Source of the DNA: Candidatus Komeilibacteria bacterium
GTDB lineage: Bacteria; Patescibacteriota; Patescibacteriia; UBA1558; UBA10009
Direction: 5' to 3'
Assembly: GCA_030688315.1 (NCBI GenBank)
Contig: JAUYIT010000030.1
Coordinates: forward strand, 1 to 58,261
DNA length: 58,261 bases
A program made the position numbers and the translations under genes. The notes under the pieces were generated by a model. The model ran no database searches and was not told the origin of the DNA. It saw only the letters and a program-made list of their open reading frames with translations. Shown one piece after another: positions 13,528 through 55,888 of the stretch (position 1 is the stretch's first letter; each line of letters opens with the position of its first letter).

Positions 13528-14613
13528 ATGAAGAAATCCAGGGTAATTTCAATAATAATCGCTGTTTTGGCAGTTAGCGCGGGCTATTTGTTTTTTTCCC
13601 AGCAAAAACAACTAAAGATTTTTTCGGCCCAACAGTCAATAACCGTTGATCAGACAGTTGTTGAAAGTCAAGAACCGCTGCCTGAATTGCCTAAGGAAGT
13701 TTCTTTGGTCGCGGTGGGCGATATTATGCTGTCGCGGGTGGTCGGTCAGAAAATGGTCAAGAACGGCTACGATTATCCTTTTGCTAAGCTCACCGATTTT
13801 TTGAGTGACGCCGATCTGACCTTTGGCAACTTGGAAACCGCCATTACCCCGGGCAGGCGGGTAGAAACGGGGGAGTTTATGTTTAGGGCGGACGCGGAAT
13901 CAGCCACGGCTTTAAAAAGGGCGGGTTTTGACATTGTGTCTTTAGCTAACAATCACAGTCCTAACTTTGGCGCCAAAGGATTGGAAGATACTTTTAAATA
14001 TTTAAACGATGCCGGTGTTAAATACGTGGGGGCGGGGAATAATCAGGAGGAGGCCAACCAGCCCGTTTATTTGACGACTAACGGCCTGACCTTGGCTTTT
14101 TTGGCTTATAATGACGATGATGTAGTGCCAGCGGGTTACGAAGCGGGCCAGAGCCGCGCCGGCACGGCGTTTATGAGGATTGAGGCCATGCAACAGGCGG
14201 TAACGGCGGCTAAAGCGGAGACGGATTTTGTGATCGTTTCTATGCATTCCGGCACGGAATACGTTAGCAAAGGCAACAGCTCGCAAATTGCCTTTGCCCG
14301 CGGAGCCATTGATGCCGGCGCGGAATTAGTGATCGGCCATCATCCTCACGTTGTTCAGAATGTTGAAAAATATAACGGCAAATATATTTTTTACAGTTTG
14401 GGCAACTTTATCTTTGATCAAATGTGGTCACAGGAAACCAGGGAAGGCCTGGCTGTAAAAATATTTTTTAACCGGGACGGAGTTGATAAAATTTCTCTGC
14501 ATCCCGTTTTAATTTCCGATTACTCCCAACCGGCTCTTATCACCGATAATTCCGGCCAGTCGATATTAAAGCGCCTTAATTATCCATTTACCAATAACGT
14601 GATTACGGATTAA
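13528..14613 (+). CDS. CapA (PGA_cap) metallophosphoesterase-family exported protein
   Basis: VGDIML, GNLE, LANNH, HSGTEY, IGHHPHV, YSLGNFIFDQ; N-terminal anchor. Confidence 0.92.
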   Translation: MKKSRVISIIIAVLAVSAGYLFFSQQKQLKIFSAQQSITVDQTVVESQEPLPELPKEVSLVAVGDIMLSRVVGQKMVKNGYDYPFAKLTDFLSDADLTFGNLETAITPGRRVETGEFMFRADAESATALKRAGFDIVSLANNHSPNFGAKGLEDTFKYLNDAGVKYVGAGNNQEEANQPVYLTTNGLTLAFLAYNDDDVVPAGYEAGQSRAGTAFMRIEAMQQAVTAAKAETDFVIVSMHSGTEYVSKGNSSQIAFARGAIDAGAELVIGHHPHVVQNVEKYNGKYIFYSLGNFIFDQMWSQETREGLAVKIFFNRDGVDKISLHPVLISDYSQPALITDNSGQSILKRLNYPFTNNVITD

Positions 14614-51018: not shown

Positions 51019-52761
51019 ATGTCTGAAAACCAAACAATTTTTAATAAATTTGAACAGGCGGTTAAAAAATACCCCAAAAACATCGCTTTGGGCTATAAAC
51101 ACCACAGCCATTTTAAAACCTTAAGCTACGGCCGGTTGCTGGATAAGGTCAACCGCGCCGTGACCGGTTTAAAAAAGCTGGGCGTTAAGCCCGGCGACCG
51201 CGTAGCCATTTTTTCCCGCAACCGGCCGGAATGGGTCAAACTGGATTTGGCTCTAAATAAAATCGGGGCCGTGTGCGTGCCCATTCATACCACGCTTTCG
51301 CCGCGCCTGATTAAACACATCATCCAAAATTCCGGCGCCCGTTTTTTAGCTATCGGCGATTTGTTTTCCAAATATCAGGAAATCGCGGATCAGCTTCAGC
51401 TGGCCTCCGTGATCACTTTCAACCGCATTGAGTGGAAGCAAGGTTTGGTTTATTTTGAAGATTTAATGAAGGAAAAGCCGGACCAAAACGAACCGTCGGA
51501 TTTTTCCGCCTCAAACGGCGTGGCCAGCATCATTTACACTTCCGGCACCACCGGCGACCCCAAGGGCGTGGCTTTAACCAATCAGAATTTTATCTCCAAT
51601 ATTTACGCCGCCACCCAGTACGTGCCTTACAACTCGCGCGACGTATTTTTGTCTTTTTTGTATCTCTCGCACGTGCTGGAAAGAACCGGCGGTTATTTGG
51701 CGCCTTTGTTCCATGGCGCGTCCGTTTATTTTGCCGAAAGCGCCAAAACCGTGGCCGAGGATTTAAAAAAAGTAAAACCCACCATTTTACTTTCCGTGCC
51801 GCGGGTGTTTGAAAAAGCCTACGATAAGGTTATGGACCGCGTCCGCGCCTCCTCTTTTTTCAAGCAAAAACTGTTTTTTAGCTCGCTGGAAATTTCGCGC
51901 ATGTATTTAAAGGCTAAAAGAGACAGTTCACCGTTAAAACCGTTTTTTAAGATAACGCATTTTTTGGCGGACCGGCTGGTGTTAAAAAAAGTCCGGCAGG
52001 CCCTGGGCGGGCATTTAAAATTTTCCATTTCCGGCGGCGCTCCCTTAAATCCTTCGGTGGCCAGATTTATTGAAGCCATCGGCGTTAAAATTCTGGAGGG
52101 TTACGGCTTAACCGAAACCTCGCCGATAATTTCAGTTAATCCTTTAAACGGCTATCGTTTTGGCACGGTGGGCAAAGTAATCCCGGGTGTGGAAGTAAAA
52201 ATCGCCGAGGATAAGGAAATTTTGGTTAAAGGCCACAACGTTATGTCAGGTTATTTTAACAACGAGGCCGGTACTCAGGAAGTTATTCAGGACGGTTGGT
52301 TTAAAACGGGGGATTTGGGTTTTTTGGATAAGGATAATTTTTTGACCATTATCGGCCGTAAAAAGGAAATGATCGTCACTAGTAACGGCAAAAACGTCAA
52401 CCCTAACAATATTGAAAACGCATTAGTGGAAAACAAGTACATTATGCAGGCCATGGTTTACGGCGACAAACAAAAGCATATCAGCGCGCTTGTTGTGCCG
52501 GATTTTGAGCAGTTAAAATTATGGGCCGAAGAAAACAATCTGGCCGGCGAAATTTACGAATTGGTTAAACAGCCCAAGGTGGTGGAATTGTATCAGCGTG
52601 AAATAACCGAAAAGCTTAAGGATTTTCCGGAAAACGAGCAGGTTAAAAATTTCATCCTGCTGGATAGGGAATTTAAGGAAGAAAAGGAAGAGCTGACGCC
52701 CACCCTTAAACTCCGCCGCTCCAAGATCCTTGCAAATTTTAAGGATTTGCTGGATAATTAA
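51019..52761 (+). CDS. fadD: Long-chain fatty acid--CoA ligase (FadD15-like)
   Basis: IYTSGTTGDPKGV, EGYGLTETSP, WFKTGDLG, GRKKE, ELTPTLKLRR. Confidence 0.9.
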   Translation: MSENQTIFNKFEQAVKKYPKNIALGYKHHSHFKTLSYGRLLDKVNRAVTGLKKLGVKPGDRVAIFSRNRPEWVKLDLALNKIGAVCVPIHTTLSPRLIKHIIQNSGARFLAIGDLFSKYQEIADQLQLASVITFNRIEWKQGLVYFEDLMKEKPDQNEPSDFSASNGVASIIYTSGTTGDPKGVALTNQNFISNIYAATQYVPYNSRDVFLSFLYLSHVLERTGGYLAPLFHGASVYFAESAKTVAEDLKKVKPTILLSVPRVFEKAYDKVMDRVRASSFFKQKLFFSSLEISRMYLKAKRDSSPLKPFFKITHFLADRLVLKKVRQALGGHLKFSISGGAPLNPSVARFIEAIGVKILEGYGLTETSPIISVNPLNGYRFGTVGKVIPGVEVKIAEDKEILVKGHNVMSGYFNNEAGTQEVIQDGWFKTGDLGFLDKDNFLTIIGRKKEMIVTSNGKNVNPNNIENALVENKYIMQAMVYGDKQKHISALVVPDFEQLKLWAEENNLAGEIYELVKQPKVVELYQREITEKLKDFPENEQVKNFILLDREFKEEKEELTPTLKLRRSKILANFKDLLDN

Positions 52762-52766
52762 GAACA

Positions 52767-53438
52767 ATGTCATACCAAAGCGTAATTTTACTCGGAGCCG
52801 CGGCCATGAATTTGTATCTGGCCGGCTTTGTCTTTTTTAGGAACCGATTAAGCGCGGTTAATTTTTATTATTCCTTGATGGTTTTGTGCGGCACCTTTTG
52901 GATTATGGGCTTATTGGGCTATTCATTGTCTTTAGATAACCCAGTCAACCGTCTGGCTTTTGTTAATATTTTGTATATCGCCACTTTACTCACCGGTTTT
53001 TATTTTTTTATTTTTACCTGTCATTTTCCTTATCCGACTTTTAGATTGCCAAAATGGCTGACAGCCGTTTTATACGCGATTGTTTTTGGCTTTTCTTTTC
53101 TGTTAAGCGTTAAGCCGGATTTTTTGCTCAATTTTAGTTTATTGGATACAAACGTGGAAGTAACGCAAATGTTGAATTATCTGATTTTTTCAATATTTTT
53201 TGGCGCGTTTGTTTTAGCTGGATTTATCGTTTTGTTTAAAAAGTATAAAAGGTCAGAAGGCATCCACAAAAGACAGATTGTTTATGTTTTATGGGGCACA
53301 GCCCTGACCTACATCTTAGCCACCATAACTAATTTATTGCCCTCGTTTTGGAATTCTTACCAGACCTACTGGCTGGGACCAGTTTTTACTTTGTTCAACG
53401 CCTTTGCCATCGCTTATCTTATTTTCAGAAAAAATTAA
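52767..53438 (+). CDS. Stand-alone 7TM receptor-like membrane protein (HisKA_7TM-like)
   Basis: Seven hydrophobic helices; N..L...VF.RN, FTCHFP and IAYLI patterns; no cytoplasmic kinase. Confidence 0.72.
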   Translation: MSYQSVILLGAAAMNLYLAGFVFFRNRLSAVNFYYSLMVLCGTFWIMGLLGYSLSLDNPVNRLAFVNILYIATLLTGFYFFIFTCHFPYPTFRLPKWLTAVLYAIVFGFSFLLSVKPDFLLNFSLLDTNVEVTQMLNYLIFSIFFGAFVLAGFIVLFKKYKRSEGIHKRQIVYVLWGTALTYILATITNLLPSFWNSYQTYWLGPVFTLFNAFAIAYLIFRKN

Positions 53439-53442
53439 CCGT

Positions 53443-53534
53443 TTGACGGAATTTAGCGAAAGTTCTATACTTTAAATAATTGAATATAAAGGGTCAAAAA
53501 ATCCTAGCCAAACTAGGGCATTTTGACCCTTTTT
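53443..53534 (+). promoter_or_regulatory. Promoter plus AAGGGTCA hairpin element, copy 2
   Basis: TTGACG-17-TATACT-TTAAATAATTGAATATA-AAGGGTCAAAA-AAT-CCTAG-CCAAA-CTAGG-GCA-TTTTGACCCTT-TTT. Confidence 0.7.
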
Positions 53535-53664
53535 GTAACAAATTAGGTTTATTTACGTCTTATTATATAAGCGACCATTAAATTTTATAAGTTCTTTAAA
53601 TTGCCATTAACCCGGTTATTAACTGGGTTGTATCAATTAGCAGGTCTGAAAGGAGGTGATAAAA

Positions 53665-53808
53665 TTGACCAGTCAGCCGATCGATGATCAGGCTTTGCCG
53701 CGGTTTTCACTTTTCGCTTCAATGAGCGCCGCTTTGCAAAGTCAGCAGGCAGATTGCGACTGCGATTGCGACTGCGATTGCGACGATGGCAACATCGACG
53801 ATTACTAA
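53665..53808 (+). CDS. RiPP precursor candidate MTSQPIDDQALPRFSLFASMSAALQSQQADCDCDCDCDCDDGNIDDY
   Basis: TTG start 4 nt after AAAGGAGGTGAT; (GAY TGC)5 repeat with alternating synonymous Asp codons; upstream of a radical SAM/SPASM gene. Confidence 0.85.
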   Translation: MTSQPIDDQALPRFSLFASMSAALQSQQADCDCDCDCDCDDGNIDDY

Positions 53809-53821
53809 TCGTCCAACATCA

Positions 53822-53858
53822 GCGGGGGAGAGCATGTCCGCTTCCCCCGCATTTTTTT
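53822..53858 (+). terminator. Terminator-like hairpin after the precursor gene
   Basis: GCGGGGGA..GC/GCTTCCCCCGC followed by ATTTTTTT. Confidence 0.75.
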
Positions 53859-53861
53859 CAT

Positions 53862-54527
53862 ATGGAATTGCAATTCACATACGATGCGGATAAAGAGTTT
53901 CATAATTTTTATAACTCTTTCAAGTCAGTTAACCATTTCGCTTGGAGTAAAAGGCAGAAAGATTTTTTTTCCGTTTTCCCGAAACTAACAAAAGAATCCG
54001 CTCGGCAGTTTTCCCAACATTATATCGCGGATAATAAAATTAATGTTCCTCGTGTTCTGCAAACAATTAAAAATCAATGGTCAATGGTGGGAAAGGAATT
54101 TTTTAAGAGGGCGGATGGTATTTATAAAACTTCCTTGCCGCAAAAATCCATTAACGTTTATTTGACCGTGCATGACAGATGTTCCTACAGTTTTAAAAGA
54201 AGCGAATTTTTTATACATTTTAATTTGGAAGCGACCAACAAAACAATTATGCACGAACTTTGGCACTGGTATTTTTATTTCACGGTCGGGAAAGAAATTG
54301 AAACGCGATCTGGTATCAAAATTTACAACGATATCAAAGAAGCGTTGACCGTTTTGCTAAATGTTGAATTTAATGATCTGCTGGGCGGCGCGGAAGATAA
54401 GGGTTATCCGCAGCATGGCGACTTACGCGAGTTTATCGTCGGCGCTTACGAGGAAACGAATAATATTTATAAAACCATCAATCGCACTTTACAATATCTG
54501 AAGTCAAACAGAGAGGAGATATCGTGA
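53862..54527 (+). CDS. HExxH (gluzincin-like) metallopeptidase-family protein
   Basis: TIMHELWHWYF plus DIKEALT third ligand; start reassigned to ATG 53862 (MELQF); GTGA overlap with the next gene. Confidence 0.75.
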   Translation: MELQFTYDADKEFHNFYNSFKSVNHFAWSKRQKDFFSVFPKLTKESARQFSQHYIADNKINVPRVLQTIKNQWSMVGKEFFKRADGIYKTSLPQKSINVYLTVHDRCSYSFKRSEFFIHFNLEATNKTIMHELWHWYFYFTVGKEIETRSGIKIYNDIKEALTVLLNVEFNDLLGGAEDKGYPQHGDLREFIVGAYEETNNIYKTINRTLQYLKSNREEIS

Positions 54528-55804
54528 TTCCGGCATTAGTCCAGTGGGAATTGACCGAGCGATGCAATTATCGCTGTCAGCATTGCTACCGGTTGGATAC
54601 AACCGGCGCTCCGGGACCCGCGCAAGAACTGAGCGACGGGCAAATGTGGCAAATCGCCCGCAAATTGATTGAGAACCGGCTGTTTTTTGTGACTTTAACC
54701 GGCGGAGAGCCGCTGGTTAGGAAAAATCTGGCTGTTGATTTGTGCCGTTTTTTGACAGAAAACGGCGTCAGGGTTTCGCTGAACACCAACTTACTCCTAA
54801 TGGATGAGGTGTCGTTCGGCAAATTCCAGTTGCGAGGACTGTTGATTTCCTGTCCGTCAGCCAATCCGGTTCTGTACCGCTTGGTTACCGGCAATGGCGA
54901 TTACCGGAGGTTTGAACGAAAACTGAAATTCGTTCTTTCTTCCGCCGCTCATTGCACGGTCAATATGGTCGTCAATCGCCTTAACTTAGGCGATATCCGC
55001 GCCACGGCTCTCAAACTGGCCAAACTCGGCGTCAAATCTTTTGCCGCGACTCCGGTCAGTTTAAATCCTCGCGCGCCGCGGCCGGATCTGCTATTATCCC
55101 TGGAAGAACTGCGAGGGGTTTTGGAAGATTTGATCTGGGTTAATCAGGAGCTGGGTCTGGAGGTTGATGTTATGGAAGCCCTGCCAAAATGCGCCATTCC
55201 CGTCAGGGCTTTTGAATTAAAACTGCCTTTTATCGGACGTTCCTGTTTTGCGGGCAAGCGCAATGGAACAATTTCGCCAGCGGGCGAGGTCAGGCCATGC
55301 GGACATAACCCTAACAGTTTCGGCAACATTTTAAAGGAGGAGGTGTCGGATATTTGGGAGCGACTTGGAAACTGGCGGGAAAATACCGGCAACCATCACC
55401 GCAATTGCCTGGCTTGCGATATCCAAAGCAGTTGCGACGGCGGTTGTAGGTTTAGCGGACATCCTCAAGATCCTTCAGCCGTTACGGTTCAAAAGTATTT
55501 AGAGGTTTCTCCTGCTTCCAACCGCTGCTCGGCGCAAATTTTATTCACGCCCCAAACAATAGTCCGGCCTTACCGCCAGATCTTGGCCCGCCGCGAAGGC
55601 GATAATTGGCTGTTATGCTCAAATTCGCCCAGAAATTTGCTGACGGTCAATCAGGATTTGTACGGGTTTATTCTTCAAACCCGCCAAATTCAACCCACCG
55701 CCATAGCCGATCTGGCTGAAAATTTCGGATCTAACTTCAATGATCCTGATTTCCAATCGGTCATGACGACCCTGATTTCCAAGTCGTACTTCCTGGTTTG
55801 CTGA
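54524..55804 (+). CDS. Radical SAM/SPASM peptide maturase with probable C-terminal RRE (PqqD-like) domain
   Basis: CNYRCQHC, TGGEPL, SPASM cysteines CFAG..VRPC..CLAC..SCDGGC; C-terminal three-strand/three-helix-like segment. Confidence 0.9.
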   Translation: MIPALVQWELTERCNYRCQHCYRLDTTGAPGPAQELSDGQMWQIARKLIENRLFFVTLTGGEPLVRKNLAVDLCRFLTENGVRVSLNTNLLLMDEVSFGKFQLRGLLISCPSANPVLYRLVTGNGDYRRFERKLKFVLSSAAHCTVNMVVNRLNLGDIRATALKLAKLGVKSFAATPVSLNPRAPRPDLLLSLEELRGVLEDLIWVNQELGLEVDVMEALPKCAIPVRAFELKLPFIGRSCFAGKRNGTISPAGEVRPCGHNPNSFGNILKEEVSDIWERLGNWRENTGNHHRNCLACDIQSSCDGGCRFSGHPQDPSAVTVQKYLEVSPASNRCSAQILFTPQTIVRPYRQILARREGDNWLLCSNSPRNLLTVNQDLYGFILQTRQIQPTAIADLAENFGSNFNDPDFQSVMTTLISKSYFLVC

Positions 55805-55851
55805 ATTTCATCAAACAGAAGCGCGAATATCAGAACGGGCATCAAACAATC

Positions 55852-55882
55852 CGGCGTTTAGCAATAGACGCCGATTTTTTTT
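55852..55882 (+). terminator. Intrinsic terminator ending the RiPP cluster
   Basis: CGGCGTTTA-GCAA-TAGACGCCG followed by a T run. Confidence 0.75.
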
Positions 55883-55888
55883 ACGCGT

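Follow-up and report, generated by a model that had tools for sequence, protein, structure and literature searches.

Known ranthipeptide enzymes use Asp, Asn or Glu as acceptor residues, and the motif of the ranthipeptide maturase PapB has a CX3D spacing. PapB and other maturases of ranthipeptides and sactipeptides carry an N-terminal recognition element (RRE) for peptides that are synthesized ribosomally and modified post-translationally (RiPPs); to our knowledge, a C-terminal position of this element is unusual. In RREs of the PqqD type, strands are followed by three helices; such an element is a leader-binding winged helix-turn-helix with a three-stranded sheet. Ranthipeptides and sactipeptides are defined by S-C thioethers that an enzyme installs between Cys and a carbon of an acceptor residue. 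Thioethers between Cys and Asp (S-C-beta) and between Cys and Glu are formed by QhpD, a radical S-adenosylmethionine (SAM) enzyme with a SPASM domain that makes use of an RRE, according to PMC13692751. The subject of this study is a locus of a Candidatus Komeilibacteria bacterium (GenBank assembly GCA_030688315.1), residing on contig JAUYIT010000030.1, whose positions 1 to 58,261 (forward strand) were analyzed and are called the window here. In this locus a 47-amino-acid peptide with a Cys-Asp repeat, a zinc-protease-like protein exhibiting an HExxH motif and a radical SAM enzyme are encoded by one operon, which very likely represents an undescribed family of enzyme-modified peptides. For the reading at the level of the operon, namely that the peptide is modified by the neighbouring radical SAM enzyme, we estimate a probability of about 0.85.

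The precursor gene (53665..53808, forward strand) begins with a TTG codon at 53665, ends with a stop codon at 53806-53808 and encodes the 47 amino acids MTSQPIDDQALPRFSLFASMSAALQSQQA-DCDCDCDCDCDDGNIDDY, the core DCDCDCDCDCDDGNIDDY at the end of the peptide being specified by positions 53752-53805. Upstream of the start codon, the Shine-Dalgarno sequence AAAGGAGGTGAT (53649..53660) could be read from the DNA. Thus, the 47-codon open reading frame (ORF) and its very strong ribosome binding site are as the initial annotation had described them, and the ORF listing reports the same frame from a GTG at 53656, a position within the Shine-Dalgarno sequence. Neither Pfam nor NCBIfam gave a match for the precursor. 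Ten distinct precursors from the clade of the window could be aligned with the peptide. Invariant in the alignment of 11 sequences were F17 and M20, which form the leader motif F17-x-x-M20, several Cys and Asp residues of the core and Tyr47 (11/11), the precursors of this clade of the Candidate Phyla Radiation (CPR) all ending with D-[ND]-Y. The core of the window contains five Cys, that of most relatives in the clade four, and the leader can be short (approximately 17 residues in locus L038). Visual reading of the printed upstream 15-mers disclosed an AGGAG-type purine-rich stretch just 5′ of the first Met in most of the ten homologous precursors, with a weak one in L089.

In the initial annotation, the alternation of GAT and GAC codons had been put forward as an argument against slippage. 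The core DNA turned out to be a tandem repeat with a 12-nt unit and no mismatch (GATTGCGACTGC x 2.8, 100% match), so the alternation marks a duplicated DCDC unit and says nothing against slippage. Selection on the protein, which had been deduced from it, was instead corroborated by the homologs: they keep CDCDCDCD while the choices between TGC and TGT and between GAC and GAT differ at nearly every position.

Related loci were collected by means of the radical SAM protein, for which the scoring of 6,672 word-sharing candidates gave 384 relatives (E <= 0.001). An alignment of 28 radical SAM sequences served to fetch 116 loci, of which 36 came from species-representative genomes and 80 were the best among 342 metagenome loci that had been confirmed. 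These loci are not independent, as the same contig may occur in both collections (L007/L046, L004/L039) and L005 and L042 are near-identical. A composition filter (ORF of 20-130 codons, at least four Cys, at least four Asp/Glu, at least 10 of 20 residues) revealed a match on the same strand and no more than 900 bp from the radical SAM gene in 72 of the 116 loci. Where at least 300 bp were available on both flanks, 57 of 89 loci had a match beside the gene. As a background, the six frames of the home genome (1,024,295 bases) yielded two matches, one of which is the precursor of the window, and 293 kb of the fetched loci lying more than 1.5 kb away from the radical SAM gene yielded six. The number of 72 is a lower bound because six loci missed by the filter (L007, L008, L019, L028, L029, L061) contain weaker Cys/Asp peptides, as seen when 14 flanks belonging to 10 of the missed loci were inspected. 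A strict search, which demanded [DE]C or C[DE] at least three times, was positive in 30 of 117 loci, the copy of the window counted. The precursor is situated upstream of the radical SAM gene in 14 loci and downstream of it in 58, indicating that the linkage of peptide and enzyme survives rearrangement; in 16 loci, at least two Cys/Asp-rich ORFs reside near the gene.

The proposal of the initial annotation had hinged on the presence of a short Cys-rich ORF in homologous loci, and this ORF was found there, far above its frequency in the home genome. The data indicate a real and conserved cluster of peptide and radical SAM/SPASM genes, which shows the general features of RiPP clusters, i.e., a conserved short precursor beside a modifying enzyme and a leader separate from the core. 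The home genome's only other short ORF rich in Cys and acidic residues (G000:C8:7612-7731, minus strand) encodes 39 amino acids with CxxC, CC and CEC. The surrounding ORFs look glycosyltransferase-like by eye, and the 6.5 kb listed showed no evident radical SAM-like ORF.

The peptide family was studied on 87 non-redundant peptides containing 646 Cys. As the filter selects Cys and Asp/Glu, positional preference alone is informative, while the overall composition (C 27% and D 26% in the core) is not. Cys was followed by D in 65%, by N in 12% and by E in 5% of the cases, and at every other offset D accounted for at most 35%. Most Cys residues were spaced by 2 (194 cases) or 3 (201 cases). Since D, N and E dominate after Cys while the Cys-Cys spacing varies, the conserved unit of the whole family is a variably spaced C-[D/N/E] pair. 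Strict alternation of Cys and Asp, previously regarded as a hallmark of the product, is restricted to the clade of the window. Of the 87 peptides, 21 ended with W, 20 with D and 12 with Y. Of 88 peptides examined for leader motifs, 41 exhibited F-x-x-M and 48 a motif of the type [YF][DE]F[SG]N[LI], either of the two being present in 74.

The radical SAM/SPASM gene (54524..55804, forward strand) encodes 426 amino acids and starts with a GTG at 54524, which overlaps the stop codon of the HExxH gene. The protein matched Radical_SAM (PF04055, 56.2 bits, cutoff 29.5), the SPASM models PF13186 (34.3 bits, cutoff 21.5) and TIGR04085 (38.2 bits, cutoff 27) and, with 25.0 bits, also Fer4_12 above its cutoff. 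In the 28 aligned sequences, C14, C18 and C21 of the CX3CX2C motif (residues 14-21) are invariant, as are the SPASM cysteines C241, C259, C295, C298 and C308; C223 and C304 are nearly so. The SPASM motif reads CX2CX5CX3C (C295, C298, C304, C308), and C333, the eighth Cys that trails CX3C, is not conserved among the 28 sequences. An AlphaFold model of the enzyme, built from the alignment of 28 sequences, reached a mean predicted local distance difference test (pLDDT) value of 83.4, with residues 290-336 being unreliable. The best solved neighbours retrieved by Foldseek were SkfB (6efn, 4.5e-16), then SuiB, CteB (5why, 1e-12) and anSME, with viperin and MoaA alongside. As judged by this model, the nearest solved folds are those of peptide-modifying radical SAM enzymes.

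In the same model, the C-terminal domain of the enzyme (residues ~346-425, 55559..55801) is predicted to consist of four strands followed by three helices (strands at 346-375, helices at 377-419), the pLDDT being 86-96 over residues 351-426. A structure search of the ESM Atlas with residues 338-426 returned the enzyme's own family and a PqqD cluster, with a template modelling (TM) score of 0.61 by query and 0.57 by target. Other Atlas neighbours were ThcOx and actinobacterial proteins of the nitroreductase and TylF types, which aligned over their unannotated part, and an MftB cluster occurred among the feature neighbours (score 0.79). All these Atlas neighbours of the domain are sub-threshold and are to be taken as leads. 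A word-limited search, which cannot prove absence, gave no candidate for shorter stand-alone proteins matching region 338-426. The predicted complex of residues 338-426 and the precursor (score 0.23, mark 0.32) was counted neither for nor against binding. On the basis of the predicted structure, we call the domain RRE-like by fold.

The HExxH gene (53862..54527, forward strand), starting with ATG at 53862, encodes a protein of 221 amino acids, a putative zincin- or gluzincin-like leader peptidase. Its motif HELWH occupies residues 131-135, and the start agrees with 27 aligned homologs. In zincins and gluzincins of clan MA, the HExxH motif lies on a helix and a Glu ligand follows further downstream. 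H131, E132, H135, E160, Y182 and H185 are invariant in the 28 aligned sequences. Relatives of the protein were numerous (443 at E <= 0.001), the 120 listed ones being free of Pfam domains; among the 28 members, sub-threshold Pfam matches were to SprT-like (3), DUF5700 (3) and DUF3267 (2). The predicted structure has a pLDDT of 95.7, its weak top Foldseek matches were nearly all gluzincins of the families M1, M4 and M61, and in the nearest named Atlas cluster 21% of the members bear Peptidase_M78. By tblastn, an HExxH homolog was found adjoining the radical SAM gene in 16 of the 116 loci. The gene order precursor-HExxH-radical SAM of the window is replaced by radical SAM-precursor-HExxH in loci of a Pacearchaeota archaeon, Mariniphaga and Komeilibacteria.

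Proteins with an HE..H motif, falling into four sequence clusters, were present in 34 of the 116 loci when ORFs of at least 80 amino acids were clustered. One of them, in L100, matched Peptidase_MA_2 (37.8 bits, cutoff 32.4), and alignment of the HExxH family of the window with this protein by hhalign gave nothing beyond the HExxH motif. Nine CPR-type loci lacking an upstream HExxH gene contain a transglutaminase-like ORF (PF01841, 58.5 bits in L004) 3′ of the radical SAM gene; L028 holds both. The rumen Bacteroidales loci instead encode membrane proteins related to DUF4760 (29 loci, with one to three such proteins) and proteins resembling CsgG/FlgO (9 loci). In these loci (L010-L024, L048-L059 and others), often two different tandem precursors are followed by the DUF4760-related and CsgG/FlgO-like proteins, a set that may be an export or immunity module lacking in the CPR version.

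Some distant loci of the HExxH protein also hold peptides rich in C, D and E, and four of them were widened. L161 (5415-6994) and L162 (3050-5360) show the order radical SAM-peptide-HExxH, their radical SAM enzyme having an N-terminal extension and the PapB ranthipeptide maturase as best NCBIfam model (142 and 151 bits, cutoff 340). In L160 (4178-5756), a SPASM-like fragment lies at the position of the radical SAM gene, and L163 (4865-5700) comprises a peptide and an HExxH gene with no adjacent radical SAM gene, the match in this genome being approximately 370 kb away. The peptides of these sister systems, encoded in CPR genomes, comprise 37-60 amino acids. As L161 and L162 pair it with a PapB-like enzyme, the couple of peptide and HExxH protein partners two types of radical SAM enzymes. 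The assumption that the HExxH family belongs exclusively to the radical SAM family of the window was rejected: in 400 genomes of the phylum, relatives of the HExxH protein were found in 22 and of the radical SAM protein (E <= 1e-20) in 13, and the two genes were adjacent only in G062 and G104.

From these findings a possible pathway can be outlined. The 47-amino-acid peptide would be translated from its strong Shine-Dalgarno sequence, and the hairpin with U-run behind the gene may let the message of the precursor exceed that of the enzymes. Fold and conservation suggest that the winged-helix (RRE-like) domain at the C-terminus of the radical SAM enzyme binds the leader with F-x-x-M. A 5′-deoxyadenosyl radical and the SPASM auxiliary clusters would then act on the Cys-Asp repeats in the core, the most likely reaction being the joining of Cys sulfur to an Asp carbon in ranthionine- or sactionine-like thioethers, and the HExxH protein, as a zincin-like metallopeptidase, would remove the leader. 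Thioethers are preferred because Cys pairs with D, N or E, the sister enzymes are PapB-like and the nearest solved folds include thioether-forming enzymes. By this analogy Cys-to-Asp thioether chemistry is a tentative assignment, to which we give somewhat less than an even chance. It is doubtful that each adjacent Cys-Asp pair is a reaction unit in which Cys sulfur is linked to the alpha- or beta-carbon of the next Asp. If so, a string of small sulfur-containing rings with carboxylates would arise, a crosslink geometry not yet described, and RiPPs of this class, possibly metal-binding or inter-microbial molecules, would be made by CPR bacteria, DPANN archaea and rumen Bacteroidales.

Several results weigh against parts of this pathway. 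The best NCBIfam scores of the radical SAM enzyme were heterogeneous (GeoRSP 74.9 bits, cutoff 400; NirJ2 74.8; AhbD 74.4; MftC, TIGR03962, 69.5, cutoff 265), and the model of the PapB family of ranthipeptide maturases (NF047865) scored only 38.8 bits (cutoff 340). With scores so low and mixed, the sequence of the enzyme does not single out thioether chemistry. Moreover, the strictly alternating DCDC core offers no CX3D spacing, only Asp at i+1, i+3 and i+5. For the C-terminal 93 and 133 residues Pfam returned nothing at E 10, PqqD (PF05402) being unmatched, and a profile of 38 sequences of the domain retrieved from PDB weak generic winged-helix chains and spurious protein A repeats. Since hhalign with the N-termini of the two PapB-like sister enzymes also failed to confirm an RRE (probabilities of 4.7% and 0.2%) while the fold fits, we kept to the wording RRE-like by fold. 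The RRE assigned to residues ~340-426 in the initial annotation is hence compatible with the predicted fold, which has a PqqD cluster and RRE-bearing RiPP enzymes among its sub-threshold neighbours, and is not supported by the sequence. The HExxH protein of the window had no Pfam match, its model had 0 solved Foldseek neighbours at E <= 0.001, and no Shine-Dalgarno sequence was seen ahead of its start codon. It is thus a putative peptidase by its motif and by its recurrence near the peptide, in varying gene order and beside two radical SAM types, and no Pfam peptidase family matches it. For a role as partner, the genomic linkage argues more strongly than the structure matches.

The same operon could also serve another chemistry, such as anSME-like oxidation of Cys, a C-C or C-S link to the conserved C-terminal aromatic residue or oxidative decarboxylation of the C-terminal Tyr as by MftC, and the peptidase might then release a small redox cofactor or a metallophore. 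We consider this a serious alternative, at rather less than even odds. It is in line with the D-[ND]-Y end of the CPR-clade precursors and Tyr47 in all 11 of them, with W or Y as last residue in 21 and 12 of the 87 peptides, with the mycofactocin maturase among the top NCBIfam models and anSME among the structural neighbours, and with the MftB cluster as a lead for the C-terminal domain. A missing adjoining exporter would suit an intracellular cofactor or chelator. The family scores, however, stay far below cutoff (69.5 versus 265 bits for MftC), the C-terminal aromatic residue is not universal (20 of 87 peptides end with D) whereas the C-[DNE] pair is common to all clades, and the sister radical SAM type is closest to PapB.

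The missing exporter would equally agree with an unmodified Cys/Asp peptide that binds metal or Fe-S in the manner of metallothioneins or phytochelatins and works with or supplies the radical SAM enzyme. Cys and Asp, at 27% and 26% of the core, are typical metal ligands, and a SPASM region without a conserved eighth Cys after CX3C also points in this direction. Nevertheless, such a peptide is improbable in view of a conserved leader motif lying outside the core (of 88 peptides, F-x-x-M in 41 and either motif in 74), the RRE-like domain on the enzyme, the recurrence of peptidase genes and the 16 loci with at least two such ORFs near the radical SAM gene, multiple precursor genes being typical of RiPP clusters. 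Finally, the perfect 12-nt repeat of 2.8 copies and, according to the initial annotation, the absence of the precursor from the ORF track might suggest a chance frame over an intergenic tandem repeat. That the short ORF is not a gene is very improbable, given the strong Shine-Dalgarno sequence at correct spacing, the same peptide written in different codons at 10 other loci and the linkage in 72 of 116 loci compared with two matches in the home genome. We therefore maintain modification of the peptide by its radical SAM enzyme as the preferred reading.

The loci originate from CPR bacteria, DPANN archaea and rumen Bacteroidales and Bacillota. The radical SAM family is rare yet phylogenetically wide: one genome each of 185,579 species gave 36 loci, and among 400 other genomes of the phylum the enzyme was found in 1 at E <= 1e-100 and in 13 at E <= 1e-20. 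A maximum-likelihood tree was calculated with 34 radical SAM rows, L034, L035 and L036 (matches of less than 380 residues) being left out; it was midpoint-rooted for drawing only, and no direction of transfer was inferred. The window and a Falkowbacteria sequence group together (support 100/99), and both belong to a CPR clade of six rows (100/100), the precursors of which end with D[ND]Y. This clade is nested in a clade of 13 rows (96/93) that includes a Pacearchaeota row, while 16 rows of rumen and gut Bacteroidota and Bacillota form a separate clade (99/99). The home assembly comprises 1,024,295 bases in 41 contigs (93.55% complete). With a genome of approximately 1.02 Mb and closest radical SAM relatives titled Falkowbacteria, Kerfeldbacteria and Patescibacteria, the home genome agrees with the CPR-like character ascribed to it from its DNA. 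CPR and DPANN genomes of about 1 Mb have little spare coding capacity. That such small genomes keep a dedicated operon for peptide maturation suggests an important role, be it in metal handling, host interaction or competition. The locus was found in two DNA sequencing runs, both from one groundwater metagenome study, and no RNA run was listed for it, which counts neither for nor against the proposed reading.

Several signals frame the operon on the forward strand. A sigma-70-like sequence, TTGACG-17-TATACT (53443..53471, 10/12 matches), is the candidate operon promoter. It is followed by a promoter-proximal hairpin with T run (53488..53536; 20-nt arms, 85% complementary, free energy (dG) -23.9, z -5.75), which may be a leader, an attenuator or a tiny RNA. 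The hairpin between precursor and enzyme genes, already noticed before, comprises a stem at 53822-53850 and a U7 run (53822..53858) and resembles a terminator or attenuator; its dG is -21.6 kcal/mol (z -4.0), and 0 of 200 shuffles were equally stable. An intrinsic-terminator-like site (55852..55883) with a 9-bp stem at 55852-55873, five pairs of which are GC, and a T run closes the operon, so that the coupled HExxH and radical SAM genes with a terminator behind them are arranged as originally proposed. A search of Rfam with 53300-56100 gave 0 matches.

Promoter and first hairpin belong to an element of approximately 95 nt, three copies of which occur in the genome: at 53436-53545 and 55882-55992 of the window and at G000:C29 ~14170-14270 (L120 1470-1578). 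Each consists of a sigma-70-like promoter (TTGAC[GA]-17-TATACT), within about 15 nt a long hairpin (GGGTCAAA...TTTGACC), and a T run. The inner stem varies among the three copies yet still pairs (fold z -5.75, -4.71 and -4.81). Downstream of the copies lie the Cys-Asp operon, an RHS-core gene and an unknown 138-amino-acid ORF, respectively. The element, which had no Rfam match, could be a shared attenuator or leader or an RNA of approximately 55 nt.

Upstream of the operon, the domain scan identified an AMP-binding enzyme (51019-52761) and a seven-transmembrane (7TM) protein of 223 amino acids (52767-53438; HisKA_7TM, 43 bits, the ORF being devoid of a kinase domain). Immediately downstream of the operon, the second promoter-hairpin copy is followed by the gene of an RHS-core protein of 300 amino acids (56009-56911; TIGR03696, 64.6 bits) with a signal-peptide-like N-terminus, and next to it by an ORF of 157 amino acids (56922-57395). 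This layout is reminiscent of a small polymorphic toxin accompanied by an immunity gene. None of the neighbouring ORFs scanned (AMP-binding enzyme, 7TM protein, RHS-core protein) is an exporter, in agreement with the initial annotation. The region is bracketed by membrane proteins at 52767-53438 and 57907-58260, the likeness being seen by eye only and the second running off the end of the window.

None of the three proteins matched a family-specific (equivalog or subfamily) Pfam or NCBIfam model at cutoff. In the accessible full-text literature no description of Cys-Asp repeat precursors was found, although atlases of radical SAM RiPPs or supplements with sequence similarity networks could hold an entry. 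Of the described systems, PapB/PapA (freyrasin) resembles the locus in a radical SAM/SPASM enzyme acting on a repetitive core with Cys and Asp, in Asp/Glu acceptors and in the sister-locus enzymes having PapB as best model (142-151 bits). It differs by the score of the window enzyme (38.8 versus 340 bits), by the dedicated HExxH partner of the window, by the N-terminal RRE of PapB as opposed to the C-terminal peptide-binding-like domain and by CX3D in place of adjacent C-D pairs as core unit. The thioether maturases of the SCIFF/CteB, SkfB and AlbA type share a Cys-rich short precursor beside the enzyme and include the best solved neighbours (SkfB 6efn, CteB 5why). However, leader and core of the window are different, the TM score by query is approximately 0.53-0.54, and the sactipeptide models remained far from their cutoffs (AlbA, NF012164, 53.8 versus 850 bits; StsB, NF045574, 52.7 versus 625). 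QhpD/QhpC, the system of the small subunit of quinohemoprotein amine dehydrogenase, differs in that the enzyme acts on a protein subunit in which the Cys/Asp partners lie far apart, and TIGR03906 was not among the 25 best models of the window enzyme.

Mycofactocin (MftA/MftB/MftC/MftE) likewise combines a short peptide ending with Tyr, a SPASM radical SAM enzyme, an RRE function and a peptidase, and MftC was among the top models (69.5 bits). In the window, by contrast, the RRE-like domain is fused to the enzyme, the core consists of Cys/Asp repeats, the MftC cutoff of 265 is not reached, and within the family only the CPR clade has the C-terminal Tyr. FibroRumin (TIGR04135/TIGR04136), CcpM, CXXX-repeat and Cys-every-fifth systems also have short Cys-rich peptides beside SPASM maturases, and the precursor of one Bacteroidales relative gave a faint match to the FibroRumin target (E 0.048, 13.6 bits, cutoff 45). 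Five of six precursors scanned remained without a match, the window precursor did not match TIGR04135, and none of the maturase models of these four systems reached its cutoff on the window enzyme or two relatives. As the precursor is extremely simple, with C-D repeats and a leader of down to approximately 17 residues, the locus would be an easy system to learn how SPASM enzymes act on adjacent Cys and Asp, and it would allow testing whether an RRE-like domain at the C-terminus functions in the same way as one at the usual N-terminal position. Compared with the known systems, the product would be a Cys-rich RiPP modified by a radical SAM/SPASM enzyme, set apart by its C-D unit, the C-terminal RRE-like domain, an HExxH partner not covered by existing models and a distribution that includes CPR bacteria and DPANN archaea.

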